DNA of 63,651 nucleotides, counting the filler, from Psammoneis japonica (lineage: Eukaryota), in assembly GCA_008632985.1 (NCBI GenBank). It is 4 parts of 4 records of this genome, joined end to end, with 100 filler letters (N's around TTAATTAATTAA, not from the genome) between each part and the next. Parts side by side here need not be neighbours in the genome. Positions count along the whole stretch, not along the records: positions 1 to 17,003 come from QPGO01000480.1; positions 17,104 to 33,808 come from QPGO01000482.1; positions 33,909 to 50,294 come from QPGO01000483.1; positions 50,395 to 63,651 come from QPGO01000503.1. One strand, 5' to 3'. Made by a program: the position numbers and the translations under genes. Every line of letters begins with the position of its first letter. Position 1 is the stretch's first letter. Below are positions 1 to 63,651 of the stretch, piece by piece. A model generated the notes under the pieces. That model searched no databases. It saw nothing but the letters and a program-made list of their open reading frames with translations, and was not told where the DNA came from.

Positions 1-1125
1 GAGGAAACACACGACAACAACGACAATGATGATGACGACAAAGATGGAGATCACACCCCTGACAAAGACGGAGATGGCTCACCCCCTCAAGATGAAGAAC
101 AAAATCATTCAGATGAGGGGGGAGAGGGGGGCAACAGCCAGCCACCAGATGACAAAGTGACTTCTGACAGAGATGGAATGGCAGAGGAGAACGACCAGCA
201 ACAGGGGGGGCAAGGAAATGACAAAGCAGATGAAGAGGAACCGTCCGCTGCAAACCCTGAGCAACAGGTGGAAGAGGACAACCAAAACATGGATGTGGCT
301 TGGCAGAGTGATGCAGATTCGAATGATGAGCCCCTTCCAAGCGGGAGTGACAGCGACAGCAGTTGCTCCCTCCTGAATCAAAGCCAGCAAGTGACGGGCT
401 CCAGTCCCAGGTGGGACTTTTTGTGACATTTGCCGCGCAGAATTCTGCGCGCAAGCTCTGCAGTTTGCACTCTGGTTGATGGATGTGTTTGTCTTTGACA
501 CAAAATGAATGGCTGAGTTTGCAGCACATGTGTCTCTCTTCGCACTTGAAGTTTTGGACAACACGCCTGCCCCACGCCATTCTCAAGACACTCGAGAATG
601 GCGCAGAAGAAAAAAATGTCAAAAGTTGCTGAGTGGATTGCCTGCTGTTTGCACTGTGAAATGATGCGATTCAAAAAACTGTCGATGTCACAGTTCAGCA
701 GCACGAGGTCCCACCTTGACCCTGGAATGCATCAAGTGCCGCGTTCCGCTGCAAGGAAAAAATGGTGGAGAATGGATGTTGTCTCCTCATCCTCTGAATC
801 ATCCTCTGAATCGGAGATTGGCGCATCAGATGATGACGACCCTTCAAGTGCTGTGGCTGCTGCCAAAGTTTCAGCCAAGATGAAAACCCTGTCAAAAGTG
901 TCTGAACCACAAAACCAGAATGTGAGGAAAAGAGTTGTTCAAGCAACTCCGGATCGTGAGACAAAAATGGATGCAAGGAAACGCAGGGCGGTGGCGCAGG
1001 CCAAAAAGGTGGAAAAAAAGGAACAGGCAAGGAGGAAGAGAATTGAGGCAGACAAGAAAAGGGGGGGAAGGCGGCGGCAAGAGCAAAGGCAATGGAGGCG
1101 GCAAGAAAGGAAAAGGAAAAAATGA
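1..1125 (+). pseudogene. Acidic/charged low-complexity coding-like region split by a MITE, function unknown
   Basis: D/E/Q-rich frame (...SCSLLNQSQQV) before 393 resumes as QVPRSAARKK...SSSSESSSE after 733 across an AAGT duplication; no recognisable domain. Confidence 0.3.
393..733 (+). mobile_element. MITE family A copy 1 (~25-bp imperfect TIRs, 4-bp TSD)
   Basis: Left end GACGGGCTCCAGTCCCAGGTGGGAC, right end GTCCCACCTTGACCCTGGAATGCATC; AAGT at 389-392 and 734-737; homologous to 31859-32247 and 40999-41324. Confidence 0.85.
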
Positions 1126-3521
1126 AGAACGCCAGCAAGCCAAAGAAGGACATGCCGCCGACAGGAAGAGTGAGGGCAGAACAACCCCCACCCATCCCAA
1201 CGAATTTGGCAAAGAAAAAAAGACGTGCAACTGGCAGCGGAACAAAAAACAACAAAAATGAAGTTCAGGCAGTTGGGCACATGCATCGACAACAAAAATG
1301 TGTACGGGGAGCATCGCAGTCTCAAAAATGGCTGCATTGCTGTGAATCCCACAACACTCATTGTCCACTTTTTGTTTTCAGGTTTGTGGCAATTTTGGCA
1401 TTCAGCCACTTGTTTTGGGTGTTGCTTTCAGTCACGCTGCCAGTCACAACATGTGAAAATGATGCTTGACTGATTCGATGTGTGCAACGACATGTCCTGA
1501 GTTCGACTGTGGATGAGAAACAGATGCGGTTGCGCGCCCATTTGGCATGGTCTGTCCATTGACAGGAGCAAAATTGCATCGATCGCTTTGGCAAATGCAT
1601 GTCCTGAGGTCGACTGTGGGTGAGAAACAGATGTGGGTGCGCATCCATTTGGCATGGTCTGTCCTTCAACCGTGGCCACTTGGCATCGATCAGGTGGGGT
1701 CTGTCATTCAACCNGTGCCACCTCATGGCCCAAACCCAAACCCTCCCATCCCAAATGCACCACATGCAATTTTTTGTTTTGCTCCCTTGGCCATTTTGCA
1801 CCTTTGAGATTTTGTGCCCTCAGCCATGTTGCGCAATTCTTGACTTTGTGCCCTTGACCTTTTTGTGCCCTTGGCTGTTTTGTGCCCTTTCCTTTTTTTG
1901 TGCCCTTGAGCATTTTTCCCCATCTCGTGGTTTTGTGCCCTTGGCCATTTTGCGCCCTTTGTGACTTTGTGCCCTTGGCCATTTTGTGCCTTTTTTGGTT
2001 TTGGGCCCTCAGCCGCATTTGGTGCCCCTCATGATTTTGTGCCTTCAGCAATTTTTGGCATTGTGGTTTTGTGCCCTTTCCCACCTTGGGCCCTTTCTGA
2101 TTTTTTGCCCTTGGCAGCTTTGCATCAAGTGCCGCGTTCCGCTGCAAGGAAAAAATGGTGGAGAATGGATGTTGTCTCCTCATCCTCTGAATCATCCTCT
2201 GAGTCGGAGATTGGCGCATCAGATGATGACGACCCTTCAAGTGCTGTGGCTGCTGCCAAAGTTTCAGCCAAGATGAAAACCCTGTCAAAAGTGTCTGAAC
2301 CACAAAACCAGAATGTGAGGAAAAGAGTTGTTCAAGCAACTCCGGATCGTGAGACAAAAATGGATGCAAGGAAACGCAGGGCGGTGGCGCAGGCCGAAAA
2401 GGTGGAAAAAAAGGAACAGGCAAGGAGGAAGAGAATTGAGGCAGACAAGAAAAGGGGGGGAAGGCGGCGGCAAGAGCAAAGGCAATGGAGGCGGCAAGAA
2501 AGGAAAAGGAAAAAATGAAGAACGCCAGCAAGCCAAAGAAGGACATGCCACCGACAGGAAGAGTGAGGGCAGAACAACCCCCACCCATCCCAACGAATTT
2601 GGCAAAGAAAAAAAGACGTGCAACTGCAGCGGAACAAAAAACAACAAAAATGAAGTTCAGGCAGTTGGGCACATGCATCGACAACAAAAATGTGTGCGGG
2701 GAGCATCGCAGTCTCAAAATGGCTGCATTGCTGTGAATCCCACAACACTCATTGTCCACTTTTTGTTTTCAGGTTTGTGGCAATTTTGGCATTCAGCCAC
2801 TTGTTTTGGGTGTTGCTTTCAGTCACGCTGCCAGTCACAACATGTGAAAATGATGCTTGACTGATTCGATGTGTGCAACGACATGTCCTGAGTTCGACTG
2901 TGGATGAGAAACAGATGCGGTTGCGCGCCCATTTGGCATGGTCTGTCCATTGACAGGAGCAAAATTGCATCGATCGCTTTGGCAAATGCACGTCCTGAGG
3001 TCGACTGTGGGTGAGAAACAGATGTGGGTGCGCATCCATTTGGCATGGTCTGTCCTTCAACCGTGGCCACTTGGCATCGATCAGGTGGGGTCTGTCATTC
3101 AACCGGAAGCGTTTCGTGCCACCTCATGGCCCAAACCCAAACCCTCCCATCCCAAATGCACCACATGCAATTTTTTGTTTTGCTCCCTTGGCCATTTTGC
3201 ACCTTTGAGATTTTGTGCCCTCAGCCATGTTGCGCAATTCTTGACTTTGTGCCCTTGACCTTTTTGTGCCCTTGGCTGTTTTGTGCCCTTTCCTTTTTTT
3301 GTGCCCTTGAGCATTTTTCCCCATCTCGTGGTTTTGTGCCCTTGGCCATTTTGCGCCCTTTGTGACTTTGTGCCCTTGGCCATTTTGTGCCTTTTTTGGT
3401 TTTGGGCCCTCAGCCGCATTTGGTGCCCCTCATGATTTTGTGCCTTCAGCAATTTTTGGCATTGTGGTTTTGTGCCCTTTCCCACCTTGGGCCCTTTCTG
3501 ATTTTTTGCCCTTGGCAGCTT
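729..3521. repeat. Near-identical ~1.4-kb tandem duplication (729-2121 / 2122-3521)
   Basis: GCATCAAGTGCCGCGTTCC... restarts at ~2122; only a few SNPs and indels; single N at 1714. Confidence 0.9.
1775..2121. repeat. Degenerate TTTTGTGCCCTT-core minisatellite, copy 1
   Basis: GTGCCC/GCGCCC cores preceded by T-runs recur roughly every 20 bp. Confidence 0.8.
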
Positions 3522-3657
3522 TGTGCCCTCAGCCGCCATTTTGCACCCTCAGTCATTTTGTGACCTCAGCAATTTCATGCCCCTGCCTGGTTTGTGCTCT
3601 TTGTGATTTGGCGCCCTCAACAGACATTTTTTGTCCTTTTTGATTTTGTGCCCTTGC
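3176..3657. repeat. Degenerate TTTTGTGCCCTT-core minisatellite, copy 2
   Basis: Same array, ends at the Copia LTR edge; collinear with 13932-14398. Confidence 0.8.
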
Positions 3658-3884
3658 TGAAGACACGACAAAGCAGCTTGTGTTACAAAGAGCAAGAGCT
3701 CAAGGTTGCATCAGAGCAGCAGAAGTCATTGTCAAAGTTCTCTGTGGAGAAATTATGATTGCAAAACTGACGAGAGGTCTCAACGACCGAATTTGTGAGA
3801 AGAGAAGAGATTTGAATCTTGGTGACGCAAGCGACACACAGAAATGTCCGAAATGACGTTGACAGAATGACTTTGACATTTTGA
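3658..3884 (-). repeat. Putative 3' LTR of the Copia element
   Basis: Follows the polypurine tract and ends ...GTCTTCA on the minus strand at the minisatellite border; no second copy in the window to confirm. Confidence 0.5.
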
Positions 3885-4464
3885 CTCTCCCTCTCAAATG
3901 CAGAGCTGCCAGCCAGCCAGACTCTTCTGACCGGATTCAAATGGAGCTTGGGCTGACCCCTTTGCAAGCTGATCTGCAAGCTGAGAGTCAATTCCTGCAG
4001 GCTCAATGATGATCTCGAGTGCTTCAACTTTAGTGCGGAACCAATGACAGGGAGCGCCAATGTGTTTGGCACAAGGAGACATCTTCGCCATTTTCGCAAA
4101 CTTGAGACACACTTGGTTGTCCTTGCAGATGATGGAGGAAGGAATCGCGCCGTCTTTTCACATCAGAAAAGGCTTTGGATTTGGCAGCAGTGGGAGCAGA
4201 AGCATTCTTGCGCCCGAGTGCGTGACACTGAATTTCTTTCAAAATTTCTCGGATCGGAATCAGGTCGCGCATGCCAGCCGACAGTGCCAGACATTCTGCC
4301 TCCACAGCAGAGAGGGCAATCTGCATCTGCAGCTTGGAGACCCACAGAACAGGACAGTCGCAATGCAAAATGACACATCCTGTACGAGACTTGACACTCA
4401 CAGGGTCTTGGGAGTTTTCATGACCGCAGAGTCCAGCAAAATTGGCATCCACAAAACAATCAAC

Positions 4465-7400
4465 TCATTTGTTGTCGCTGGGGCGTGGATGGAGGCCCTT
4501 GTCCTTGGCACCTTGAAGATGACGAAGAATGCGCTTCACTGCAATGGCATGAGAGTGTTCAGGAGCACAGGAGAAGCGAGCGGCTTGATGGGTGGTGCGC
4601 GTGATGTCGGGACGGGAGTTTGCCGACAAGTGCACGAGCATCCCGACAACAGATCGGCAATCCCATGGTTTGGCAAAATCGGCTCCCTCTGAATCAGCAT
4701 GGCACGGAGAAGCAGTGCAAGGCATGGGAGAAGGACGACAATCTTCCATGCCAGCAGCTTTGAGGACCTTGTCGGTCAGACCTGGTTGAGTCAGTGGGAA
4801 CTCCTTGGGTCCGGTCTTGCGAATCTTGACACCTGGGAAGTTGCCAACTTCTCCTTCATTACGAAGCTCGAAAATGTGACGTTGTTCTTCCTTTTGAATT
4901 CCTGGAGCGGCAATCTCGCATTCCAGAAGGTCTCTGTCAGCACCAGCGAGGATGGCATCGTCGACGTGTGCGGCACAAATCATGCCATCCTTGAAGAACA
5001 GACATGGATCTGCAGCTGACTGAATCCACCCTCGTTCAAGTGATCCTTCGCGGAGCTTTTCGTGGAAGCATTTCGGGGCTTGTTTCAACCCATGGAGCGT
5101 CTTGAGCAGCTTGAGAACCATGTTCGCACCTGAAGAGTGACCAAAGCACTTGGGAGGTTCGACACAAACGTCTTCAGCAATGTCAGCTTGTGCAAACGCA
5201 TTTGTGCAGTCAACTTGACGAGCTTTCCACCCTTCTTGCAATGCAGCACTCAACAGCAAACGAGCAGTCGACCACTGGACCACTGGAGCGCAAGTCTCGA
5301 AGTGGTTGACTCCCTCTTGCTGCAAATCGCCACGACAACAAAATCGAGCCTTGAATTTCAGCGGAGCACCGTCGGGCAAGCGTTTCAACTTAAATGCCCA
5401 TGTTGATTTCAACACATTCATGGATGAATCGCGCTTGACAAATTTCCAAGTTTTACGATGAACAAGCGCGGCCACTTCGGTCTTCATGGCCTCGACACAT
5501 TGCTCGGCGAATTCGCCCGTGAGAGCTTCTCGCATGTTCGGCGCATCGTCATTCTTCTTGGCCTTTGTAGCGCAGACACGAGGGTCTTGAATGTCCAATT
5601 GTCCACTGTCACAGCAGGTCTGGATCTGAGCAAGACAGGTGAGCTGGGAATGGTGTCCTCCAGCATCCAATGGCTCGACTGAGGCCAAACAGACTTCGTT
5701 GGCAAAACGAGTTTTAGCTTGCTTGCCTTTGTTTGATCTTTGTGAGTGACGCACATTCTGCTCAGTCGTGGATGGGACTGGAACATCAGGAGCCGGGACT
5801 GGGATGTCCGATGACTCCGGGCCAGATTGAGGTGGCGGACGTACGAGAGGCGGTGCATGACCAACTTCAGAATCGCTCGTTGATGGATTGGGGTTTTGTG
5901 GTGGCTGCGATGGCGGTTCCTGTGGTGGCGCCAATGGCAAGTCGTCTGTGTTTGATGGTGTGGACACATCAGGACGTGCAGATGGTGGCGGTTCGATGAC
6001 TGGAGCGACAGGCTTCGAAGACTTTGTAGCAGCAGGCTGTTGTTGACGTGCATTCCTGACAAGATGCTCGCGTTCTTCATGTCGCCATTTCTGCTCGAGT
6101 TCTGCAGGAGCAAGCCAATCGTCTTGGAGGAACAATTGTTTGTTGCTTGAATCCAGTGGCATCTGGATGACACTCTCCAAACAGAGCTCTTCCCAGTGAT
6201 CAGGTGGCTCGCTCTCCCTCTCAATTGATGCGACCGTGGCAAAGAGATCGTCGAATGCCACATGATGCTGAGGAGCAATGGACCCGGCACTCAAGTTCAG
6301 GACCAGTGGAACCTCGCCAGCGTGAACCAAGCTGAGGCCGAGAAAAACACCACGCCGTGATCGTGGTTGCCAACGCGGCAATTTCTGTCCTTGCTGCAAC
6401 TTGGGATCCAAGACGTAGACAGGACACCCCCAAGCATGTAAATTGAGCAAACAGTGGCGTGGGATGGTGGATCCGGTGAAAATGTCGGCAGGACAAAGTC
6501 CATTTGATCCCGGAGTGTTGTTGTAAATGTGGGCGGCACAGTTGACCGCCATGGGCCACAAGGAGCTGTCAATGCCACCACGCCAATGGATGGACACGTG
6601 GAGGATCATGGCTTGCGCCACATTGGACACAGAACGAATGGACCGCTCCGCAACGCCATTCTGGTGATGGGCATTTGTTCCACAATGGTGGATGCGTTGC
6701 TGAGATTTGCGGACATGGGCAACAAACTTGTTGGCCTTGAAAGCACCATTGTCGGCAAGGTGCTCCTGCACGATGATGCCGTGACCCAGAGCCATCTGCT
6801 CACAACCTTGTTTTGCCCGCATCGTCTCAACTGCAGAGAAACCAACTTGATGCTCAACGTGTGTGAACCCAGAGGCATGATCGACGAAAATGCAGCCGCC
6901 AACACACTGCTGGGAGGGGGGTTTGCCACAGGAATCACAGGTGCAACCCTCAGCGAGGATGGCATCGTCGACGTGTGCGGCACAAATCATGCCATCCTTG
7001 AAGAACAGACATGGATCTGCAGCTGACTGAATCCACCCTCGTTCAAGTGATCCTTCGCGGAGCTTTTCGTGGAAGCATTTCGGGGCTTGTTTCAACCCAT
7101 GGAGCGTCTTGAGCAGCTTGAGAACCATGTTCGCACCTGAAGAGTGACCAAAGCACTTGGGAGGTTCGACACAAACGTCTTCAGCAATGTCAGCTTGTGC
7201 AAACGCATTTGTGCAGTCAACTTGACGAGCTTTCCACCCTTCTTGCAATGCAGCACTCAACAGCAAACGAGCAGTCGACCACTGGACCACTGGAGCGCAA
7301 GTCTCGAAGTGGTTGACTCCCTCTTGCTGCAAATCGCCACGACAACAAAATCGAGCCTTGAATTTCAGCGGAGCACCGTCGGGCAAGCGTTTCAACTTAA

Positions 7401-9640
7401 ATGCCCATGTTGATTTCAACACATTCATGGATGAATCGCGCTTGACAAATTTCCAAGTTTTACGATGAACAAGCGCGGCCACTTCGGTCTTCATGGCCTC
7501 GACACATTGCTCGGCGAATTCGCCCGTGAGAGCTTCTCGCATGTTTGGCGCATCGTCATTCTTCTTGGCCTTTGTAGCGCAGACACGAGGGTCTTGAATG
7601 TCCAATTGTCCACTGTCACAGCAGGTCTGGATCTGAGCAAGACAGGTGAGCTGGGAATGGTGTCCTCCAGCATCCAATGGCTCGACTGAGGCCAAACAGA
7701 CTTCGTTGGCAAAACGAGTTTTAGCTTGCTTGCCTTTGTTTGATCTTTGTGAGTGACGCACATTCTGCTCAGTCGTGGATGGGACTGGAACATCAGGAGC
7801 CGGGACTGGGATGTCCGATGACTCCGGGCCAGATTGAGGTGGCGGACGTACGAGAGGCGGTGCATGACCAACTTCAGAATCGCTCGTTGATGGATTGGGG
7901 TTTTGTGGTGGCTGCGATGGCGGTTCCTGTGGTGGCGCCAATGGCAAGTCGTCTGTGTTTGATGGTGTGGACACATCAGGACGTGCAGATGGTGGCGGTT
8001 CGATGACTGGAGCGACAGGCTTCGAAGACTTTGTAGCAGCAGGCTGTTGTTGACGTGCATTCCTGACAAGATGCTCGCGTTCTTCATGTCGCCATTTCTG
8101 CTCGAGTTCTGCAGGAGCAAGCCAATCGTCTTGGAGGAACAATTGTTTGTTGCTTGAATCCAGTGGCATCTGGATGACACTCTCCAAACAGAGCTCTTCC
8201 CAGTGATCAGGTGGCTCGCTCTCCCTCTCAATTGATGCGACCGTGGCAAAGAGATCGTCGAATGCCACATGATGCTGAGGAGCAATGGACCCGGCACTCA
8301 AGTTCAGGACCAGTGGAACCTCGCCAGCGTGAACCAAGCTGAGGCCGAGAAAAACACCACGCCGTGATCGTGGTTGCCAACGCGGCAATTTCTGTCCTTG
8401 CTGCAACTTGGGATCCAAGACGTAGACAGGACACCCCCAAGCATGTAAATTGAGCAAACAGTGGCGTGGGATGGTGGATCCGGTGAAAATGTCGGCAGGA
8501 CAAAGTCCATTTGATCCCGGAGTGTTGTTGTAAATGTGGGCGGCACAGTTGACCGCCATGGGCCACAAGGAGCTGTCAATGCCACCACGCCAATGGATGG
8601 ACACGTGGAGGATCATGGCTTGCGCCACATTGGACACAGAACGAATGGACCGCTCCGCAACGCCATTCTGGTGATGGGCATTTGTTCCACAATGGTGGAT
8701 GCGTTGCTGAGATTTGCGGACATGGGCAACAAACTTGTTGGCCTTGAAAGCACCATTGTCGGCAAGGTGCTCCTGCACGATGATGCCGTGACCCAGAGCC
8801 ATCTGCTCACAACCTTGTTTTGCCCGCATCGTCTCAACTGCAGAGAAACCAACTTGATGCTCAACGTGTGTGAACCCAGAGGCATGATCGACGAAAATGC
8901 AGCCGCCAACACACTGCTGGGAGGGGGGTTTGCCACAGGAATCACAGGTGCGACCCTTCAGATGCGACTCGAAGTGATCAATGCTCATGGACTGACCTGG
9001 ATGGAGATGACCAGCCTTGAGTGCACCATCGCGTTCGGGGACAGCAGGACGGCGGTGAGCCTTGGCATGCTCGCAGGCATCACATTTGGGGATGTCACAC
9101 TTGGAAGCAGACGCGAACTTGAGAGCGGTGAAAGGAGGCCGGCGGAGAAGAGCTTGGATGCGTGGAAAATTGAGATGCCCAAACCGAGCATGTGTGTCCA
9201 CGAGCAGCTTCTGCCCAGAGGACAGATTTAGATTGTCAGGGTCAGCAATGGTGCTCAAATTGACCTGAGGAGCAAACACAGTGCCGCGAGACGTGTGACC
9301 AACCGGCAAGTTTGAGCGCTCATCGTGTGGAACTTGGATCTCGGGTGTGCCGTAAAAACAAATCTTGAAGATCTCACTGTCACCCCAAAAATGGCCTCGA
9401 ACACCTGCAGGATGAAAGAGACGTTGAGGGGACAGAAGGTGCACCTTGGAACGAGGGACATGACAGCAGCAAGTCTGGACATTGACGTTGCTGCCGTCGG
9501 CAGCCTGGAAGCACCAAGAGACAGTGCCAACGCCCTCAGCGGGAAGGCCGCCAGCCATCCCACCAAGCTTGAGAGGCTCAGACAGCAATTCAATCTCGCC
9601 ATCAAAGTCCTCCTCATCCGGAGAGATGGTGAGAAAGCAC
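4465..9640 (-). pseudogene. Copia pol (integrase-RT) with in-frame 2007-bp internal duplication and mutated catalytic motifs
   Basis: ORF 4465..9858; IN-RT block occurs twice; I count only 6 Tyr in 1797 aa; HVDD instead of YVDD. Confidence 0.85.
4944..8957. repeat. Tandem 2007-bp duplication (4944-6950 / 6951-8957)
   Basis: CAGCGAGGATGGCATCGTCG restarts at 6951; ORF track repeats with a 2007 offset (5137/7144, 5484/7491). Confidence 0.95.
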
Positions 9641-13560: not shown

Positions 13561-13716
13561 TGCCCTGCGGGGCAATTTTTTTGGAGTGTTTTCTGGCTCT
13601 GCGGCTTGAAACAACATGCAAAACAGCACGGACAGCGGCGTTTCGCCAAATTGAAAAATGCGGTCGTCTCTGAGATCGGAGTCTGGACACTCTCAACGGA
13701 GTTTGGTGCATCACAT

Positions 13717-14398: not shown

Positions 14399-14464
14399 CT
14401 GGTCATGACAGAGCTGCAGAACAACAAGAACCTGCCCGATGAAGAGCGCGGGGCAAAGGAGAGA

Positions 14465-50294: not shown

Positions 50295-50394
50295 NNNNNN
50301 NNNNNNNNNNNNNNNNNNNNNNNNNNNNNNNNNNNNNNTTAATTAATTAANNNNNNNNNNNNNNNNNNNNNNNNNNNNNNNNNNNNNNNNNNNN
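50295..50394. other. Artificial contig spacer
   Basis: N44-TTAATTAATTAA-N44. Confidence 0.98.
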
Positions 50395-51399: not shown

Positions 51400-51761
51400 C
51401 AGTGTTTCCCGAATGTGCATTTTGGTTGGACCAAAGTTGTTGACAAATGTGATGCTCGAGACCAAAATGATTTTGTTTCCCGAAAACGTCATTTTGGTCA
51501 GGGGAATTTGGCGTGCTTTCGGCGGGAATCTTCCGGTGGAAAGCGCGCATGTCGACACACCGTGCAAATTTCGTAGGAGCTGCGTCAGCATTGTTTGTGT
51601 GGAAATGTGCATGAAAATGAATTTGGTCGAGATTTCGCAAATGTCAGTTTGGTCGACCAAATTGATTTGGTCGGTCTGGCAATTTGTTGGTCGACAAAAG
51701 TGTTTTGGTTCGACCAAAATGCCAATTTGGTCTGACCAAAATGCACATTCGGGAAACACCA
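51400..51761. mobile_element. MITE family C, ~35-bp TIRs, hAT-like termini, internal GACCAAA motifs
   Basis: CAGTGTTTCCCGAATGTGCATTTTGGTTGGACCAAA ... TTTGGTCTGACCAAAATGCACATTCGGGAAACACCA; no TSD recognised. Confidence 0.75.
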
Positions 51762-52153
51762 GTCTGCCCACACTCGACACTGAAAAGACAAAGTGCGTGC
51801 AGTCTCACCCTCAAAATTGTCACCTTTTCCTTGCTCCTTCTTCTTTTTGAAGCCTCTTGCTGCACGCCAAACAAGTGTCATTCGTTGCATCACGCTCACA
51901 ACAGCAAAATGCGAGAGCTTTCATCATCATGTTCTTCAAGTGACACTGGATGCCACAGCTCAAGCAGGCACCACCAGAGCTCTCCCCCCAGTGTTTTGCC
52001 AAGCAGCTCTTCTTGCAAAGCAATGTCTGTTCAGGAGTCCACTGGCAAACTGAAGCAAGAATTCTTGCAGCTAAGTCCTTTGCCACAAAAAGGCAAAATG
52101 AGTCAAGAACCAACTTGATTCTCTTTGCCAATGAGGATGATGCGCCACTTTCC

Positions 52154-54013
52154 ATGATGGAAGATGGTGTTGCCGCCAAAAACCATGCCTCCGAGCCAAC
52201 CAGTGGGGCTCCAATTGCAATGACGCCGGGTGCCGAGGCTTCCAACAATGACGCAGCTGACATGTCTGCATCACATGCTGACTCGGACGTCGTGGGACCC
52301 TTGCATTCTCGGGGGAAGCCCATTTTTTCTTCGCGTGCATGTTGGGCACTGGCCGCTTTACCACTCTTGGGCTTTCTAGCGGGAATTGTTGTGGGCTTGC
52401 TTGCCAGGAGCGACCCTTCACCCAAAACCCTGGTGCCCACTCCCACTGCAATGCCGACTTTGATGCCAACTTTAATGGAACGAGGTGAAATGGTGAAACG
52501 ATTCGTGACCTGGGTGGGTGATGCAGTGGAAGAGCCCGGTGCACCCGAACACAAGGCGGCGGTTTGGATTTCACATAAAGATCCCATGGGGCTTGATGTA
52601 GACTCCAAGAATTTGATGCAACGGTTCTTGTTGGCGCTCTTTTACTTCTTCACCACACAGATTTCGGATTGGCGCAACTGTGGCTCTCCATCCAAGAATG
52701 AAGATGAGAGTTGCATCTTTGACATCTTGGGTTTTGCCTTTGATCCGGATGAAGGATCGGATTTGGAATTTTACACCGGGTTTCCCGCAATTCGATGGCT
52801 TTCGGCCCGATCAGAATGTGAATGGATTGGTGTTACATGTGATTCTGTCAACACAATTCAGGCCATTGATATGTGTAAGTAAACAAACCAAGAGTATGCG
52901 GATGATTTGCGCATTTGTCATGTGCTCACCGAGATATCGTCATTGCACAACTAAAACACTGTGTACAGGGGGAAACAATGTCACGGGACCCCTTCCGTCC
53001 ATGCTTTCCAAATTTCCATTTCTCCAATCCATTTCCATGGCACACAATCAGTTCACAGGAACAATCCCCGAAGAGTGTGCCAGCATGCTTCACCTTGCCA
53101 ATTTAGACATCCATGACAACATGCTGACAGGAACAATTTCTCCCAAGTTCTACAAGGCCAACAAACTTTGAAATTTCAATGTCGGTGCCAATGATTTGGA
53201 TGGACCACTCATGGGAGTGGATGGAACAAAGATTGACAATTTGGATGAATTGAAAGGATTTCACATTTACGACAATGACATTGCAGGAATCTTCCCAAGT
53301 GAAATTGGCAATCTCAAGTCTTTGTTGGTTTTGCGCATTGGCAACAATCGATTTGACGAGCAGCCCATTCCAACGGAAATGGGAAAGCTCACAGGCCTCC
53401 AAGAAATGTGGATGAATGGAAACAAATTCAACAGCACCATTCCAGTTGAATTGAGCAATGTGAAGAAGCTGAGTGAGCAACACAATGCTGTGTTGTGTGC
53501 ATTGGAGTGATTGTGGTTGCAATTGGAGGGTGCGCATCTAATTAAAAATTCTGTTCCCTGTGTTTCATGTTTACAGCCGATTTGCACATCGACAACAATC
53601 GTCTTGCTGGTCAAATCCCAGAGTCGCCACATGAGTTGACGGATTTGGCATTGTTGTTTTTGGAAAAGAACCAACTCACGGGACCTCTCAGTCCCTCTGT
53701 GGGCAAGCTGAATGATTTGGAACAAATTCGTCTACGCGAAAACAAATTGTCCGGTTCCATCCCGTCCGAATTGGGAAGCTTGTTTAGATTGGAATTGGCC
53801 TTTTTGCATCGCCACACGTTTGAGGGACCCGTTCCACCCGAGGTGTGTGCCAATGTTGCGTGTGGACGACACTCATTGGAGTGTTTAAATGCCGATTGTG
53901 GTGGACCGACCCCACCCAATCCCTGCGAGTGTTGCACCGCGTGTTGTGAACCCTTTGGCGTTGTTCCCAGTGTCTGTCTTCGAACCAAGCATTTAGATTC
54001 CGGGCATGCTTGA
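52154..54013 (+). pseudogene. Membrane-anchored leucine-rich-repeat protein of an expanded diatom family, apparently pseudogenised
   Basis: TM segment, PT stretch, QRFLLALFYF, WLSARSECEWIGVTC cap, LxGxIP LRRs, ADC..CECCTAC end; introns near 52875-52968 and 53472-53577; in-frame TGA at 53169. Confidence 0.8.
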
Positions 54014-55749
54014 ACAAAGAACACACTGTTGGGAAAGTAAAAGAAATGAAAGACTCTAGCAGAAATGAAAGACTCTGGCATGCATGTGCAAAACGCAATT
54101 AAGAACATGACTTTGTGAAAAATGTTGCAGTCAAGTTTTTGTTTTGTCATTGCAATGCTGTGAACAGCAGTGCATGATGAGGTTTTGTCATTGCAACACT
54201 GTGAAAAGCAGTGTGTGACAAGCATTGATGCCCAACTCGCAAGCTCTGCCCACCAGAGCCTGTTGAGCTTGGTCACACAAGAGAGAGAAACAAAAGGAGT
54301 TCCGAGAGCCATTTGTGCTCAATGTTTCATCATCCTGCTCAGAAGGCATTTGAGACACTTCAGATGCTGTGCACAGGGGAAAGAAGATGTTCAAAGCTGT
54401 GTCCACAGAAATGCTCAAACTTTAGATGTCCAAACATCATCCATTTGCATGTTGATCTTGTTGCACACATGTGTTCACCATCAAGAGCTTCTCTGCCATG
54501 GTGAGCACAGTGGTGCTGAGTGTCTTGTTTGGCTCATGATGATCTGCATGACTCTGTTTCCCTGATTTAGAGACACTGTTCTCAGCTCACTTTGCCTTTC
54601 TGCCACCAACCTGATGTTTTGCATGGCATCAAGGGTCACACCTTCTGCCAAAAAACCACATGAACGTCAGACTGCAAGTCACGCACGAACAACAGCACAG
54701 GTGCTTGCAGCCCCACCTGTGTCATTTGAAGCATCTCTGGCTCTTTGGCTCTTGCTTGGCCCACTTTTGCTCCTGCTTGAGCCTGTGGAGAAAGCTGACA
54801 GCATTTCCTTTGCACAGCATGCATGCCAGTTGTAGTTGACAAGTGCTCGAATCTGTCAAAAATGAGCTTTTTGGCTCTGCTGGCCAGAGCAACAGCATTT
54901 TCAAAGTGTGTGCACCCATCAATTTTTCAAGATGATGTGTGTGCCCGCACACAGCAGCCTCTGGTTGAGAGACCTCCACAGCAGGCTTTTGCTCAGCTGC
55001 GCTTTGTTGCAACTTGAAAATGTGTTGGCAAGAGTCTCAAAATGCCTGCAGCCCAAATTCTCACAAACTCTCCATTGCACATGAGCTCGTTTGGCTTTCT
55101 CCCATGATGTGAGCTCACTCACCCAACTCAGCTCCACCTCTCATGTCTGACTTCAGCAAAGCCACCCTCTCGACAACCAAAAAAAGTCAAGGCACCCAAC
55201 AAGGAGACTTGGGGTGTGTTGCACATGTGTGTGGTGTGCACAAATGGCATGTTTTGCCGGGAGCTGAGTGTGGCCTGTCTCCTGGGTGGTGTTTCCTTCC
55301 AGAAAGATGGCCCCCGATGTGTGTGACTGCATGTTTAAAAAATGACATCTTTGGTCTGCATGCTGGTGTGTGACAGTGGTGCAAAATTGTGTGCATGCTC
55401 CTCCGCCGTGTTGAAAAAATGGAAACCACGGAGAAAACACGATGGAAAGGGACAATCTGTTAACACGTGATGATCTTCCACCAAAAGAATCTGCCTTGTC
55501 AGTCATTTAGAGCCCAATTGCCAGCAATTTGCACGGCAATTTGGGGAGCGATTCACCGCACTTCACCGTGGTGAAACAGGGGTTGTCCAAAATTTTCAAT
55601 TTGACATCCCTGCTCCAGCAAAAGATTTGAGTTGCATGACCTTTGCACATGACGAGCAACAGTTGTGTGATGAACTGCTGGCATTGCTCAAATTGCAGCA
55701 GATTGCACGTGTGTCTTGTCAAATGACACAAAGTGATGATTGACACACT

Positions 55750-56200
55750 GTTTTGTCATTCTGCATCGTTTCCAGCCCCATGAGCAACCACCACCCCCTT
55801 GCCTTGACGACCAAGTGCACCCAAAAAAGCCAAGTTTGGCCTCTCCTTGTGCCGCCAAGGATGCAAATTGCAATGGGTCAAACATGCATCTTGTCATGAC
55901 AATCCAAAGCAATGTTGGATGCTGTCAAATCATTCTGTGCCATTTCCAGCCCCACAAGCATCCGGCAACTGCCGACCGAGAACCAAGAACAAAAAAAATG
56001 TGTTCCAGCCTCTTGCTGCACCGCCAAGACTGCATGTTGCAATGGCTCAAGCACGTGTCTCATCATGACAGCCAAAAGCAACATTGGAAGCCCTTTCGCA
56101 GTTCACTGCATCGTTTCCAGCCCCACAAGCAACCGGCAAAACCGCCATGTGATCTGGGTGCCAAAGAAACATGAAACCTTTAGAAGATGCCATCAAAACA
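55750..56200. repeat. ~173-bp tandem repeat, about 2.5 units
   Basis: TTTCCAGCCCCA at ~55769, 55943 and 56114 with matching downstream sequence. Confidence 0.7.
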
Positions 56201-57619
56201 ACTGCACCACCAAACTCAGCCACTTGAACTGCCTTTTGCCATCATCATTGGTGCCAAAATGAGGTCCCACGGACAGCGATTGATGACCAGAGTCAAGTTT
56301 TGGAGAAAACAACAACCACCCTGCCCACAAAATGCAAAAGAAACTCAAAAGCTTTTGAAGATGCCAACAAAAACAAGACACCATCACACTTGCCACATTC
56401 AAGTTGCCTACGCAAATGCTCTTGCCCCTGCAACATTGTCCCAGAACAGTGTGTTCATGAATGGAGCCATGCCGCCATGGTGTTTTTCTCGGATGAATGA
56501 GCTTCATTCGCACGGGAGTCCAGCCACATTTTTGAGGTAAAAAAAACTCATTGAGCACAAGGCAGGCAGCAGCAGAAGCAGGGGGAGAAAAAAAGGCTTG
56601 CTTTTGTGAGGATGGCATGAGCATGGTCAAGAAGCCACACACAGAGAAGCAATGAGCCAACTTTGTGCAGTCTTGCAGCTTTTGTGCCAGGTGGCGGTTC
56701 AAGAGCGCATGCCATGATCATGATGCACGGCCGCTGCTGCTGCAAGGCACCAAGAGCAGCAGTGGTGCTGGCCAGCTTCCAGCTGCAAGAGCTTGGCCTC
56801 TTGCATTGTGAACTTAGAGCACTTTGTGGCAGAGTTGAAAATCAAAATGCTTTGATCAATGTGCGCAACATGGTGGCAGGAAGGAAGTGGGCAAGACAAG
56901 CTGAGACAGCAGGGTGCAAGCAACAGCTGACAATGGCAATTCTTCATGCTTAGAATGCCTTCATTTCACATTTTCTGTGTTCACTGTCCTGGTTGCTTGC
57001 GTTGGACTGGCGACATTTGTGCCACAAGATCGTCATTCCCTGTGAGCTTCACAATGGCGGTTTAAAGCTGTGTTTGACTAACTTGATTAAAGTGACAAAG
57101 GGGCAATGTGTGATGACTGTAAAAATTGCCCTGTTGAGCAAGTGCAGCAACAAATTCGCCTTTGTGTGCAGCACAACCTTGAAATGTCCTGTTCTTCATG
57201 TGCGTTGTTAAAATTTATGTGCGTTTGCCCCACACTGTTCAACAAACCGGCACTCTGCAGAGATGCGAAAAATGCATTGGACCTGCTTGCTGAATGTTGA
57301 CTGACTCTTGCATTCCTGCTTGTTGTGTCCGCACCACAATTGGATGCATTGATCATGAACAAATTTGCAACACTGCAGAATTTGACAAATGCCTCTCGCA
57401 CATCATGAGTCGAATCATGTGTCTTGTGATCATTGCATGCTTTCCAAAAGAGTCGCAAGAACGTGAAGCTCTTGAGCACTGGGACAGCGGTCATTGTTGC
57501 TGTCCTTGCACCGTGGAGTGGAAATGCTCAAGATCTGGCATGTGCATTGTTTGGCCACTTTTGCCATGCATCTTGCATGATGTCTTGTTTCTGATGTCGT
57601 GCGTCAACTTACGAAGTCT

Positions 57620-60600
57620 TTCCATTCTCATGGCGCAGGGCGCATGTTGTGACCCTGTGACCACTGTCACTCCCACAAACTGTTTTGATGCCATTGGAGG
57701 CGCACGCACATTCGCACTTGGGGATTTCCAGGGTCCAGGCACTGAGTGCATCAACGGCGAGTGCCCCACTGGTGCTTGTTGCTTGTCGGGCGGTGGTTGT
57801 GCAGTTGAATGCCCTGCATTTTGTGCTTTGAATGGAGGTGATTACAAGGGTGACGGTGTTTCATGTTCTGCATGTCTTTTGACACCTGCACCGACTCCAT
57901 CTCCTGCCCCGAATCCTGCGCCAAGTCCGACACCTGGGCCTGCTCCTTCTCCTGCCCCAAGTCCCACACCTGCGCCGACACCTGCACCCACTCCTTCTCC
58001 CACCCCAAGTCCGACACCTTCGCCAACACCGTCACCTGCTCCTTCTCCTGCGCCAATGCAGGGAGCTTGTTGTTTGTTTTATGACACTTGTGCAGTGGAA
58101 TGTCCCACGGATTGTGCTGCATCTGGAGGTGTCCACCAGGGCGATGGTGCTGAATGCATTGAAGGCGAGTGCCCCACTGGTGCTTGTTGCCTGTTTGGCT
58201 GCTGTGCAATTGAACGTCCCAGGGATTGTGCTGAGAACGGAGGTCTTTACGAGGGCAATGACATTCCATGTGCGGAACTTAGATGTCCTTCTCAAGAATC
58301 TGCATGCTGCACCGTAAAGGACAGATGCTTGGACCAACTTGCAAGAGACGAGTGCATGGAACTTCTGAATCGGGGCGTGTGTGTGGCAGATGTCAGTTGT
58401 GAAGAAGCTCCAATGTGCCAAGAATTAGGTGCTTGTTGCGCTGAAGATGGGCCATGTCTAGACACTTTTACGGCGGAAGCTTGTGGTGGTGTTTGGTTCA
58501 GTGGACAAATTTGCAAAACCGATGAAATGGCTTGCCCTGCCGCCTGCACCTTCACCAACGCCGAGTCCAACTCCTTCGCCAACACTGTCACCTGCACCAG
58601 CGCCAACCCCCAGCCCTGCACCTTTCCGACACCGAGTCCAACACCAGCACCGACGCCCTCGCCCACTCCAGCACCTGCACCCGCGCCGACACCGTTGCCC
58701 ACTCCAGCACCGACACCGTCGCCTGCTCCTGCGCCAACTCCCAGCCCCACACCTGTTCCGACACCAAGTCCAACACCGGCACCGATGCCGTCGCCCACCA
58801 GAGCACCGACACCCTCTCCAACGCCATCACCCCTGCAGCACCGACACCGTCGCCTGCTCCGGTGACAACTCCAGCCCCACGCTGAGTCCAACTCCCAGCC
58901 CCACACCCATTCCGACGCTGAGTCCAACACCCCATCTAACACCGTCCCCCACACTTGCACCGACACCGTCGCCCACTGCAGCGCCAACACTGTCACCTGC
59001 TCCGGTGCCAACTACAAGCCCTGCGCCTGCTCCGACGCCAAGTCCAACACCATCACCGACGCCGTCACCTGCGCGTGCGCCATCTGCTGCTCCTGCAAGT
59101 GTCGATTCATGTCAACTTGTTGTTGTTTCATGGTTTTCAAATGACAAGCAAAAGTTCTAAATTCTGTTTGTGTCAATTTCACCATCTTGCAGTTGGGAGC
59201 TTGCTGCAACTTGGAAGTTTGCTCAATCCTCTCTGAGGATGAATGTCTGCGGGGGCCACCACCTGATCACACCCGCAACTGGCTTTTCAAGTGGAATGGA
59301 AAGGGCCAGGTTCGACTTGCAAAAACTCCTGCAAAGGCGCTTGCTGCCTGGAACCAGGATCCAACAAGGCTTGCTTCAAGGGAACTGAAATTGAATGCTG
59401 CGCAAATGGTGGCAGTTTCGCAGACCTGGGTGACATGCGAGGATGCAGATTGCCCGACGTTGCCTCCAACGACTTCTCCCACCAAGAGCCCCACCATGGC
59501 TCCAACTGTCCAGACTCCAACCGCAACTCCTGCGACCCCGGCTCCTGCCAAAGCTCCTACACTACCACCAACGCAAGTTGATCAAAGCCCTGGTGCAGGC
59601 TGCACCTTGTTTGATGGTTGCAAGTTCCTTTCTCAGGAGATGTGTGCTTTGGGGTGGTGGCATTTATAAAACCAAACCAAAAGTGCAAGGACACTGAATG
59701 CCCCATTAAGGGAGCTTGCTGCTTGGAGGATGGATGCAAGCAAACCTTCAAAAAGGAGTGTGCGAACCAAGGAGGAAAGTTCAAGGGATTTGGTGTGCCA
59801 TGTGAACTTGGTTTGTGCCCGACCAAACCGCCAACACCAGCTCCAACCACCACCAAGCCACCATGAGACCCACGTCACTCCTCCCTTGACTGGAGCGTGC
59901 TGTGATGTCGAGAAGGATGAATGTGAGCAAACCGGGAACTTGACTGTGACACGGGTGCATTCTTGGGGCTTGGAGTCAAGTGCAAGCCGGGCATTTGTCC
60001 AACAAGGACTTCTCCTGGAGCGTGTTGCCTCAATTCTGGAGAGCACCGTTTCTGGTCTCAAAAGACATGTGCCCAAACGGATCATTCTTTTTGGGTCCTG
60101 GTGCTTCCTGCAAAAACGTTGTGTGCCCAGTCAAGACTCCAAGCCCAACCCTTGCTCCAGCAAAGAAACCGATTGGTGCTTGTTGCTTCGAAGTGGACTT
60201 TGTCACAACCTCAGGCCTTCCGTTTGCAGGAAGAAGTGCGGCAAGTTCATCACTGTTGGCACCATGTGCAAGAAAGACAACACCTGTCCCATTTGGATGG
60301 CAGCAAGCCTGGTGCATGTTGCATGGTTGACAAAAGGCAATGCAAAACTCTCGAGGAGAAGGCTTGCGAGAAGCGGGAGGGAAGTTTTGCCGGTGAAGGT
60401 GTCAAGTGCAGCAAGAAGTCGTGCCCCGCGGCACATGGATCCTGCTGTTTGCCGGACGGCTCGTGCATTGTGACCAGGAAGAAACAATGTGAGAAGAAGC
60501 GTGGACACTTCAACGGATTTGGCACCACGTGCAAGAAGCACACTTGTCCTGTGGAGCGCCCCGGGGCTTGTTGCTGGAGGAATGGCAAGTGCAAGGTTCT

Positions 60601-60800
60601 AAAGAAATCACAGTGTTGGAAACGGGGAGGCAAATTCAGGGGAGGTGAAAAGTGCGGGAAAAAGACGTGCCCCAGAAAGGCGCAAGAAGTGGTTTCAGAC
60701 AATGCAGCGAATCGGTCCATTGGTTGTTTTAACAGAATGTCTGTTCATGGTGTTGCACCCTTTTCACTTTGTTTTGCAAAGCATCAGGCAGTGTGATGAC
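57620..60800 (+). pseudogene. Extracellular-type Cys-rich GACC-repeat protein with PT/PS/PA linkers and Lys-rich C-terminal repeats, frameshifted
   Basis: Many GACC...C...C..GG.(Y/F).G.G..C modules spread over several frames; PTPAPTPSP arrays at ~57880-58055 and 58540-59090. Confidence 0.75.
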
Positions 60801-61280
60801 ACAAGATGGGAACAGGAACACCGAATTTTAATGAAATGTTGCTGCACGGTTAACCCGGTCCTTGAATGAATCATCAGACGGCACGAAAGGTGTAACAACA
60901 TTGGAGCCGCTGTCCTTTGAGGCTCCAATTTTGCTTTGTCATTCATTTCAGCACATTCTAAATTCTCTGCTTCCGGCAAGGGGTTGGACCATTGACCTCC
61001 CATGGATCTGCTAGAGCAGATGCAAACAGAGCCATTTGTCATTGAAACACCATTGTGCCTGGCACACCACATCCAAGATTGTGAGTGAATGAAGAGTGCA
61101 CCATTGGGAAAGTTGAAGGGAATGAAAGACAGCAGCATGCATGTGGCAAATGCAGTCAAGAACAAGACTTTGTCAATGATGTTGCAGTCTGCCCAACACA
61201 CAAGCTCTGTTCTGGAGGCTGTGAAGCTCAGTAACATGAAAAAGAGAAATGAAAGCTCCAAGAGCCATGAAGCTTTTGCA

Positions 61281-61677
61281 GATGTGTTCCAGCTCTAGGT
61301 GGGACCTCGCACTGCTGCACTGTGACATCAACAGTTTTTTGGATCGCGTCGCATGTCACGCACGCACATTTCCACATGCTGTTTTCTACGAAATTGTTTC
61401 ATGCTCCCTGTTTTGCAAAGCCAAAGGCTTTCTATTTTCAACATTTGTGAGAATGAAAATGCACTGGGTGTGTTCTTTAATGTCTGAAGAACACACCCGG
61501 GCAAACTGTTGATGATGTGCTGCAAGCACGAAGGAGGAGATGCGTTCGTAAAATTGCCTCTTTTTCTGTTGGCGATCATTTGCATTTTCATTGCAGCACA
61601 AACTTGCTGCGGAGCTCGCACGCAGAATTCTGCGGGCCCAATGTCACACGGAGTCCCACCTGAGACTGGAACCCATC
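61281..61677 (-). mobile_element. MITE family A (subfamily 2) complete copy
   Basis: GATGTGTTCCAGCTCTAGGTGGGAC ... GTCCCACCTGAGACTGGAACCCATC; TSD TGCA on both sides. Confidence 0.88.
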
Positions 61678-63651
61678 TGCAGCCGCAGCTTGTGATCTCC
61701 ATTTTGTCATTCTGTTGTGAAGGCATTTGACACATGTCAGGTGCCGTGCACTGAGGAAAGAAGAAACTCTCAGCACCAGATCCACACGGATGTTTGGACT
61801 TTCCAGCTGCGCACATGTTGATCTTGTTTTGTGCATGTGCGCACCATTGAATGCTTCTCTGTGGTGAGCGCAGCAGCGCCAAGTGGTTTCTTGCTTGGTT
61901 TTCTTCATGATGACATGTGCGCCACCCTGTTTCCCAAAATCATCAAGAGACGCTGTTCTTGGCTCACTTTGCCCTTCTGCCACAAGCCCGACTTTCTGCA
62001 CAGTGTCAAGAAACACGTTTTCCCCACAAGACCACATGAGCGCTTGACTGCACCACAAACAAGAGCGACATCACAAAGACGCTGGAAGTCCTGCCCATGC
62101 TGCTGAAACATCCCTGCCTGGCTTGTTTTCCTCCTCATGGGAAAGCAAGGGCACCCAGCAAAAGGAGAGACTTGGGCACTGCACACATGCATGTTTGTTG
62201 GAAACAGTGCGTTTCTCTCCAGGACTTGAGTGTGACCACCATCTCCTCACAGAACCAAGATGGCTCCCAGCAAAGAGTGCGAGGGTCAGCTGAGCGGCGG
62301 CCTTGCACTTTTTTGAAATGGGCGGCAGCTTCTTGTCAGTGCTGTCCACTGCCTTGCTCCAGGGTGCAAAGGGCTTGTTCCAGATCCAGGTGCTCCGCGC
62401 GGGTTCGATTCCCATCATTTGGAAATTTGTGCATTTGGCGCAGTTGACTTTTTCCAAATCCATTTTTTGCCAAATCGAAGGGCAAGTGTGCACTTTGCAT
62501 GCATTTTCGGGTGCACACTCACCTTTCGATTTTCGAAACGATCAAAATTGAAGGAGTCAATTGCGCCAAACTGCACAGAAAATCGGCCTCTCTTGTGATG
62601 AAAAGCAGATCACCTGGAGCTGGAACAGGCCAAAGACCCACATTGCTTTGTCCCCTCCTCAACCTGTTCTGCCCCAATGCCTGCCACCTGTTGAAGGCAA
62701 AGAGTTCCAACAGTTGCAGGAAGAATGGAAAGGGCAGTCGTGATGCGAGATGGCGGGTGTCACTTTGAGTCGTGATTCCATTTCAAAATCACTCGCACAT
62801 TGTGTTGCATTTTATCTGCTTCTTCCAAAATCTACAGTGCCTGGCTGAATGACGGCTGTGAACCCACTGTGCGATGATGACTGTGGAAAATGTGCTTGGT
62901 TGGCAGACATTCTTCACAATGTCTGTGACAAAACGTTTGACAGCCACAGCACAGCACAGTGTCATTCTTTTAAAAAAACTCACTTGGGACAGAGTTCAAT
63001 GAATGTTTTACATTGTTCACTGGCCATCTTCAACCAAACCCGAACTCTCATCCGCGAACCTCATTGTGTGATGTTCTTCCATGTGTGCAATCACCAATCA
63101 CCAACAACCAACAATGTTGTGGTTGTGGGTGCGTGTGGCAACAAAATGAACATGAGTGCAATGAAAAGAAAGTTCTCTTGGCTCTGTCGAGCCATCCATT
63201 CTTCTTCCTTGCTGGTGGCATCGATGCTTTTGGGGACCATTTTGGTTGCTCAGATGCTTGCAACAATGGTTTCATCGAAAGGCACTGAAGAGGACAAGCA
63301 CGATGATGCTTTGCCAAACAGTGGCACACGGAACATTCCTCAAGAGGCTTCTGATGTGAAAACGAGCCTTTCTCACTTGAGACCAAGGACTGCTTGGCAG
63401 CGGCTGTTGCTTCACCAGGCCACTTGTGCCTGCACATCTTGTCTTGTGGATTTGCTGGACACGTGCTGTGGAGATGCTGCTGCTCTACTTGGAACCGAAA
63501 AGATCATTTTCAACAAACTCAAGAACTCGTTAACTGTCATGCTCATCCAAGGAAATGCCATTGGCTCACTCAACCAGCTCAGGGAAGCAGAAAAGTGGAT
63601 TGAACAGCAGAGTGCAAAACAGAAACGATTCAACAACATTGGGAGGATTGC

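Follow-up and report, generated by a model that had tools for sequence, protein, structure and literature searches.

Repeat DNA of the diatom Psammoneis japonica bears a mark that was probably left by a DNA-level hypermutation in which the A:T pairs of 5'-TA-3' are changed to G:C. We found this mark in a stretch of 63,651 nucleotides from the assembly GCA_008632985.1 (hereafter the window), where a Copia element, miniature inverted-repeat transposable elements (MITEs), minisatellites and anonymous repeats lie in DNA that has lost most of its TA and gained TG and CA, and where a block of genes has kept a normal TA content. The window consists of four contigs set end to end (1-17003, 17104-33808, 33909-50294 and 50395-63651), separated by three identical spacers, so that neighbourhood across the spacers is artificial and the window is not a single locus; the two whole inner contigs measure 16,705 and 16,386 bases, the longer one first, and only in contig 2 (17104-33808) do genes truly adjoin TA-poor DNA. 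An earlier note on this DNA, made by eye from the sequence, had proposed that repeats are inactivated by a mutator specific for TpA, which works on the DNA itself and turns A:T into G:C. Our analysis supports that central proposal, and the catalytic motif of a reverse transcriptase (RT) has been destroyed.

Dinucleotide content is expressed throughout as the ratio of the observed count to the count expected from base composition (o/e), and a two-state segmentation was used to split the window into TA-poor and TA-normal DNA. Over the whole window the o/e of TA is 0.207 (811 observed against 3926 expected) and that of CG is 0.615; TG and CA stand at 1.536 and 1.514, and AA (1.217) and TT (1.251) are not depleted, in agreement with the earlier observation that TG and CA are in excess and runs of A and T intact. 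There is no TA in positions 1-1302, the first occurring at 1303, where composition predicts about 72 and the gene-block level about 42; at the TA frequency of the gene block a TA-free run of this kind has P ~2.5e-22. Contig 1 as a whole contains 38 TA, against 952 expected by composition and 552 at the gene-block level, whereas seven TA fall within 19201-19260 in the gene block. The TA-poor state makes up 74.6% of the window, with o/e values of 0.04-0.14; the segmentation assigns the gene block (18884-30533) to the normal state. The description of transposon-rich DNA as almost free of TA, with a normal gene island, is thus upheld, and TpA is not equally low in genes. The losses and gains can also be set against each other as percentages of all dinucleotides, relative to the gene block: TA changes by -3.53, CG by -1.14 and TG+CA by +4.75 in 1-17000, TA+CG by -6.07 and TG+CA by +7.19 in 31001-48000, and TA+CG by -5.74 and TG+CA by +6.69 in 50001-63651. 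The lost TA and CG are balanced by the gained TG and CA.

The depleted DNA has sharp limits. In contig 2 the TA content is normal over 17104-17278, poor as far as 18883, normal through the gene block up to 30533 and poor beyond it, and each change of state is abrupt. The TA-poor blocks that flank the genes have an o/e of 0.07-0.08, against 0.57 in the genes, and their edges can be placed within about 50 bases.

The direction of change is visible in the protein encoded by the Copia element of contig 1. The element has a TA o/e of 0.05-0.09, and its polyprotein open reading frame (ORF; 4465-9858) encodes 0.33% Tyr, 5.1% His and 4.3% Cys; the Tyr content is 1.69-4.56% in 146 of its best 150 database homologues. 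The RT catalytic motif YVDD has become HVDD, and LYGLKQ has become LHGLKQ. We aligned the 828 non-duplicated residues with 32 of the 150 homologues, picked by hand for near-full coverage and normal Tyr, a choice that excludes the Tyr-poor best match (P0123) and partial matches. At the eight columns where at least 60% of the homologues have Tyr, the Copia ORF has Tyr once, His five times and Cys twice, and the codons at conserved Tyr columns are CAC or CAT (His) and TGC (Cys). The other conserved columns are kept in 199 of 253 cases (Fisher p=1.9e-4 against the Tyr columns). Further changes that match a loss of TA are Leu to Pro (CCA, twice), Leu to Ser (TCA, once), Val to Ala (GCA, once), Thr to Ala (five times) and Ile to Val (four times).

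An element that was TA-free by nature could show such a composition, with His or Cys at the same places. The homologues have Tyr at the columns where seven of eight residues are His or Cys here, and 80 related Copia loci from metagenomes, recovered by an alignment-based scan, have TA o/e values of 0.36-0.91, with none of the 80 below 0.36; the TA-free state is therefore not native to this Copia lineage. No close relative of the Copia ORF was found in metagenomes by a single-protein search, and the 80 metagenome Copia loci include no environmental DNA copy of the TA-poor footprint, which is represented outside the window by proteins only. Four of the 150 listed homologues have less than 1% Tyr (P0186, 0.05%; P0235, 0.76%; P0123, 0.84%; P0271, 0.56%). 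Over 12 Tyr columns the counts are seven Cys, four His and no Tyr for P0186, which comes from a metagenome assembly, and four His, five Cys and no Tyr for P0235, which comes from an NCBI record; at the same columns these two proteins choose differently between His and Cys from the window Copia. Judged by these residues, the same footprint exists in other public assemblies. The RT fragment of a second, different Copia (48318-49304) has been affected in part: its YVDD is intact and it retains nine Tyr in 329 amino acids, with LCGL in place of the usual LYGL.

The same direction emerges at the DNA level from a MITE family, whose elements are about 380 bases long and end in 20-nucleotide terminal inverted repeats (TIRs; 31864-31883 and 32223-32242 in copy c2). 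At three aligned columns all three states (TA, TG and CA) occur among the copies, a pattern that is difficult to explain unless an ancestral TA underwent independent conversions. Copy c1 carries TG or CA at six of the seven sites where c2 and c3 share TA; elsewhere, over the 203 sites where c2 and c3 are identical, it has 12 transitions and four transversions (p=1.1e-6). From these alignments we take the direction of change to be TA to TG or CA, with TG and CA the derived states. The TA-normal segment at 31842-32295 coincides with copy c2 (31864-32242), and the TA-normal islands look like MITE copies that were inserted later and are still unconverted. In read-derived copies of the repeat family, position 31275 has TG here and TA in most copies, and position 31760 shows the reverse; the 10 repeat places among the 40 covered, out of about 460 that differ, are too few to use.

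These observations suggest a process in which an adenine struck on the top strand of TpA would yield TG and one struck on the bottom strand would yield CA. Its targets include an LTR (long terminal repeat) retrotransposon, a TIR transposon and anonymous repeats alike; it stops within tens of bases at the edges of elements or blocks, spares the adjacent genes and is nearly complete wherever it has acted. The chemistry may be that of an ADAT/TadA-like deaminase that turns adenine to hypoxanthine in DNA, and the activity would be aimed at silenced or foreign DNA, episodic, and in the service of genome defence, and it would be the same kind of process as has been measured in Bigelowiella natans. 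For coding sequence the outcome is that Tyr becomes His or Cys, as in the change of YVDD to HVDD, that Ile, Leu, Val and Thr codons are altered, and that TAA and TAG stops are erased.

The sequence context of TA loss bears on the chemistry. Survival of TA relative to the gene block is highest in TTAA and lowest in ATAT, and the 16 NTAN counts fit an additive per-strand model set by the base 3' of the A, with cumulative hazards of 0.25 for TAA, 0.73 for TAG, 1.09 for TAC and 1.93 for TAT. This model is better than a single rate (chi2 181, 3 degrees of freedom, p=6e-39), with a goodness of fit of chi2 20.6 on 12 degrees of freedom, and the gain of TG minus the gain of CA tracks it across the 16 contexts, which are partly dependent on one another (r=0.65, p=0.006). 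Despite a suspicion raised by 1-17000, surviving TA are not enriched beside CG once the whole of the TA-poor DNA is taken together (14.4%, the gene block having 11.4%). The series TAT>TAC>TAG>TAA can equally be read as a 5' series, ATA>GTA>CTA>TTA, for the opposite T, and so it is compatible with adenine and with thymine chemistry alike. It is unlikely, yet deserves the most serious hearing among the alternatives, that the thymine is the base attacked: the T of TpA in marked chromatin would be modified by a TET/JBP-type enzyme, in the manner of 5-hydroxymethyluracil or base J, and then mispaired or misrepaired to C, and the footprint of TA to CA and TG would be identical. The hydroxymethyluracil of dinoflagellate DNA is reported to favour TpA and TpC. 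Against a thymine route, the single experimental report of this signature puts forward deamination of adenine, as a hypothesis (bioRxiv 10.64898/2026.01.13.699255).

A second alternative places the change in a transposition intermediate, the RNA or cDNA being altered during retrotransposition by an ADAR- or APOBEC-like enzyme and the result fixed on integration. The edges of depletion do coincide with element edges, and the near-identical duplicates in the window (2007, 1405 and 459 bases) share their choices of TG or CA, which would fit change before insertion and which shows that conversion mostly preceded duplication. Editing of an intermediate should be one-sided, but a hand count from the alignment table gives about 11 A to G and about nine T to C changes on the sense strand of the Copia ORF (His five and Cys two at the Tyr columns), so both strands were affected about equally. 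One copy of a TIR element, which is a DNA transposon, has moreover been fully converted, as have, over at least 17 kb, minisatellite arrays and anonymous sequence. Strand symmetry and the converted TIR transposon together indicate that the process acts on DNA, as had been proposed, and RNA or cDNA editing of retroelements was rejected as the cause. In B. natans, too, the targets described in the main text of the preprint are resident, single-copy integrated viral DNA (bioRxiv 10.64898/2026.01.13.699255). We regard editing of intermediates as very improbable.

Equally improbable is a slow and undirected loss from non-coding DNA over a long time, whether by ordinary context-dependent mutation, biased gene conversion or selection against TA, for instance as a site for TA-targeting transposases or nucleases. 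TA is mildly under-represented in most genomes, and in the gene block itself the o/e is only 0.57. Decay of CpG does operate alongside, with a CG o/e of 0.15-0.78 in TA-poor segments, but it cannot remove TA and was rejected as the cause. The two losses do not run together: TA and CG o/e are related by a Spearman coefficient of -0.28 (p=0.065; 44 one-kb windows of TA-poor DNA), and among the MITE copies c1 has no TA and 14 CG, c3 10 TA and eight CG. Because TA loss is uncoupled from CG loss it is not clock-like decay, and must be locus-specific and fast where it acts. Selection for function is contradicted by the altered catalytic residues, and none of the 80 related elements comes near this TA level. 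Loss of TA is complete where other transitions amount to about 6% (12 of 203) and the decay of CpG is modest, and its edges are abrupt; this is a fast, locus-specific process and not background drift.

Contigs built from public reads were consulted for retained TA. The public run X1 contains 91% of the sampled words of 17104-27100, and its contigs, made with a different assembler, cover 17255-17910 and 18010-18823 with no differences in 656 and 814 bases, at a k-mer depth of 29-37; they keep the TA-poor sequence and exclude an artefact of the assembler or of polishing, though they do not represent an independent sample. A technical origin, in which errors of base-calling, polishing or assembly at a modified base conceal DNA that truly retains TA, might draw on the fact that the sole run with this sequence belongs to one sample and study, from which the assembly itself may have been made, but it is scarcely credible in view of this exact reproduction, the normal TA content of genes on the same contig, the family copies that carry TA, TG or CA at one site, the Tyr-less Copia proteins with the His/Cys pattern in other public assemblies, and the presence of the signature, according to the main text of the preprint, in Illumina data of B. 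natans (bioRxiv 10.64898/2026.01.13.699255).

Several observations weigh against hypermutation of resident DNA at TpA, or against the detail with which we describe it. The footprint was read from one assembly of one sample, with no mutation observed in progress; the runs X1, X2 and X3 represent one sample and one study, and X1 is probably the sample that was assembled. The MITE tree is unrooted, and the fourth copy shares the TG of c1 at one of the seven sites. The ranking of sequence contexts is firmer than the numbers attached to it, as the baseline is an 11.6-kb gene block and regions of different depletion were pooled; the absolute gains of NTGN and NCAN are poorly predicted by the context model (r=0.09), and its agreement with the choice of His or Cys at nine Tyr codons is only loose (four Cys observed, 6.1 expected). 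Part of the conversion could have been inherited from source copies that were already mutated, instead of being made in place. In the more diverged repeat pairs there are 98 sites, over all 14 pairs, where one member has TG and the other CA. Such discordant sites exceed a model of CpG decay in seven of nine pairs (10 against 0.9 in one pair, 17 against 8.8 in another) and fall below it in the other two (0 against 0.4, and 11 against 32), the latter being a further count on the negative side.

Table 1. Features of the window. Positions refer to the whole 63,651-nucleotide stretch; o/e is the observed/expected dinucleotide ratio.
Feature	Position	Strand	Details
TA-poor block of contig 1, unbroken	1-17003		Copia, MITE copy, minisatellites, unannotated repeats; TA o/e 0.04, CG o/e 0.67
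MITE copy c1	396-733	plus	0 TA, 14 CG
Tandem duplication, 1.4 kb (1405 bases)	728-2122 / 2121-3523		98.7% identical, 5 differences
Minisatellite arrays, 17- and 34-base units	1784-2115, 3185-3529, 13993-14398		TA-free
Direct repeat flanking Copia, 459 bases	3199-3656 / 13931-14389		95.9% identical, 2 discordant TG/CA sites
Copia-type polyprotein ORF, hypermutated	4465-9858	minus	1797 codons; RVT_2, E=2e-59 (Pfam)
In-frame tandem duplication, 2007 bases	4944-6950 / 6951-8957		integrase-to-RT segment of Copia ORF; 99.9% identical; the 2 differences are of CpG type
Artificial spacers, 100 bases	17004-17103, 33809-33908, 50295-50394		44 N + TTAATTAATTAA + 44 N; identical in all three
TA-poor repeat block	17279-18883		sharp edges on both sides; 7 TA, o/e 0.07
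Gene block, TA-normal	18884-30533		TA o/e 0.57, CG o/e 0.99
Inorganic pyrophosphatase	19251-20201	minus	gene block
DUF1995 protein	20766-21608	plus	gene block
Mitochondrial ATP synthase alpha subunit	26291-27817	plus	gene block
Spliced unannotated gene	29019-30541	minus	one contig of run X2 joins 29019-29354, 29641-30035 and 30176-30541
TA-poor block directly after gene block	30534-31841		6 TA, o/e 0.08
MITE copy c2, TA-normal	31864-32242	plus	nested in TA-poor DNA; 12 TA, 24 CG, TA o/e 0.44
TA-poor repeats	32296-38625		spans spacer 33809-33908; TA o/e 0.14, CG o/e 0.38
MITE copy c3	40999-41319	plus	strong CpG decay, little TA loss; 10 TA, 8 CG
TA-poor repeats	41228-48698		includes diverged tandem repeats at ~41.5-43.3 kb; TA o/e 0.13, CG o/e 0.41
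RT fragment of a second Copia, partly affected	48318-49304	plus	mostly in TA-normal segment, o/e 0.47
Contig 4, mainly TA-poor	50395-63651		except 52576-52964; TA o/e 0.05-0.10
ORFs matching leucine-rich repeats (LRR_1)	52617-53168, 53546-54010	plus	E=8e-7 and 2e-7; within TA-poor DNA or on its border
Fourth MITE copy	~61.3-61.7 kb	reverse	5 TA, 17 CG

The features collected in Table 1 include two repeats whose standing needs comment. The 2007-base duplication within the Copia ORF may have arisen by a real unequal recombination or may be an artefact of assembly. The 459-base direct repeat that flanks the Copia was considered as an LTR pair for dating and set aside, since it is built of 34-base minisatellite units and the pair is not proven. 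A lone N stands at position 1714.

The genes of contig 2 bear out the diatom origin that the earlier note had assumed. The alpha subunit of the ATP synthase (26291-27817) shares 95% identity with the representative sequence of a cluster drawn at 90% identity, whose members include proteins of Phaeodactylum, Chaetoceros, Helicotheca and Thalassiosira, and it is 88% identical to a Tetraparma protein. Since one contig of run X2 joins the three exons of the unannotated gene across introns at 29355-29640 and 30036-30175, X2 behaves as an RNA run; it is almost without cover on TA-poor DNA, and the uncovered parts were not used as evidence. Read-derived contigs differ from the window at seven of 2769 bases (20447-23215) and 11 of 2710 (26225-28898), consistent with two alleles about 0.3-0.4% apart.

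Open frames are a poor guide in the remaining DNA. The window contains 143 stop-to-stop ORFs of at least 130 amino acids, many of them overlapping across several frames. TA-free DNA has neither TAA nor TAG, so that TGA is the sole stop and very long frames persist in dead elements; with stops so few, an open frame there is no sign of function. We scanned 18 ORFs against Pfam and then 127 of the 143; of the 16 outside the second scan, four had been scanned earlier under slightly different coordinates and 12, which overlap Copia or gene-block frames, were left unscanned. Among the ORFs covered, Pfam found no LINE-type (long interspersed nuclear element) domain. The list of affected classes given in the earlier note can therefore be kept for Copia, for the TIR element of MITE type and for TA-free minisatellites, and its LINE lacks the support of Pfam. 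The note had also counted intron-containing, host-type sequences among the targets; only the two LRR-matching ORFs of contig 4 stand behind this, which may be members of a host gene family that the process has overtaken or a piece of a mobile element, and a host-gene target was not confirmed.

A process with this signature has been followed experimentally in B. natans (Mettrop et al. 2026; bioRxiv 10.64898/2026.01.13.699255). In mutation-accumulation lines, 230 of the 231 changes in two integrated viral regions were A to G or T to C, all on TpA, at a rate of about 6e-7 per site per generation, roughly 1000 times the background. TpA-depleted coding sequences of that genome are enriched for reverse-transcriptase and DDE domains, and a homologue of ADAT2 has been suggested as the enzyme, as a candidate only. 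The likeness to the window extends to a change of TpA to TpG or CpA only, on both strands, to the targeting of non-host DNA in a genome that is otherwise normal, to genomic clusters depleted of TpA and enriched for CpA and TpG, and to an episodic look, mutation having occurred in only some accumulation lines. In the window, likewise, A:T goes to G:C at TpA only, selfish DNA is hit and host genes are spared. The host, however, is a chlorarachniophyte (a rhizarian) there and a diatom (a stramenopile) here; the targets are insertions of giant viruses and virophages there, and a Copia, a TIR element and anonymous repeats here; Rho is 0.45 in the region derived from a nucleocytoplasmic large DNA virus, against an o/e of 0.04-0.14 here; and mutations were observed de novo there, against a footprint here. 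The main text mentions no trinucleotide context, diatoms or stramenopiles, and the supplements may hold the context. The present case thus belongs with that of B. natans as one kind of process seen in two lineages, but here it is far more saturated and acts on ordinary transposons. The suggestion of the earlier note that the process is new must accordingly be narrowed to diatoms, for TpA-only A:T to G:C hypermutation is known from the B. natans preprint; in a full-text search of the literature we found no report of TpA hypermutation in diatoms.

Repeat-induced point mutation (RIP) of ascomycetes offers a different comparison. It resembles the process described here in acting on DNA through dinucleotide-biased transitions that riddle transposons, with sharp limits at element edges, as a genome defence. 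RIP converts CpA to TpA (PMC2621366). It thus makes TA and stop codons, whereas the process here destroys TA and removes stops, and it is triggered by duplication, whereas here the element of highest copy number is the least affected. The evidence for this last point comes from summed k-mer depth in run X1, a measure of copy number that counts near-identical copies only: it is about 54 in genes and unique DNA, 250-560 at 17.1-18.8 kb and 8,000-82,000 at 31.0-33.8 kb. To judge by the high depth over 31029-33808, copies of the MITE-like family and of its neighbours must number in the hundreds at least. MITE copy c2 (31864-32242), in bins with a depth of 37,000-74,000, is the highest-copy element and yet the least depleted, with its 12 TA kept, and TA-poor DNA at 30663-31115 has the depth of a unique sequence (51.5). 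A RIP-like trigger aimed at repeats, as the earlier note had supposed, is not supported by these observations, and RIP was rejected as an explanation on the grounds of its opposite direction, the removal of stops and the slight effect on the highest-copy element.

Two other known activities share features with the process. Deamination of 5-methylcytosine (5mC) also yields TG and CA and is active in these same repeats, but it consumes CG and not TA, and the two losses are uncoupled here. Adenosine deaminases (TadA, ADAT2-3 and ADAR, to be considered alongside APOBEC3) produce the required outcome of A to G. TadA and ADAT target A34, the base that follows the conserved U33, and ADARs prefer a U on the 5' side. 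The usual substrates of these enzymes are RNA or single strands, in contrast to both strands of resident chromosomal DNA here, and a 3' T ranks first in the window, as against the 3' G preferred by ADARs.

RIP, APOBEC-type enzymes and the decay of 5mC all push C:G towards T:A, and a targeted mutator in the direction A:T to G:C has a single experimental report. With its saturated footprint in a diatom, the process reaches a second major lineage as well as ordinary transposons, and it becomes plausible that the system is ancient or widespread. The footprint also provides new handles on the process in the form of a preference for the 3' neighbour, independence from CpG decay, edges as sharp as the elements themselves and the sparing of a young MITE of very high copy number. 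We advance only as a tentative proposal, with somewhat less than even expectation, that a dedicated adenine-editing defence operates on DNA at 5'-TA-3' with a preference for a 3' pyrimidine, that it is common to at least two lineages of SAR (stramenopiles, alveolates and Rhizaria), and that it is saturated in this diatom, episodic and addressed to particular loci instead of being set off by copy number. If this is true, it would be the first natural A-to-G editor of double-stranded DNA used for genome defence, a mirror of RIP in its direction. Diatoms are genetically tractable, so that the enzyme could be looked for in them, and a natural DNA A-to-G editor would be relevant to base editing. 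The dead elements give rise to very long ORFs and put Tyr-less pseudo-proteins into databases; on the same reading, the genome of the diatom would contain graveyards of transposons that are free of TA and have TGA as their sole stop, and Tyr-less Copia proteins in the databases would mark further hosts.

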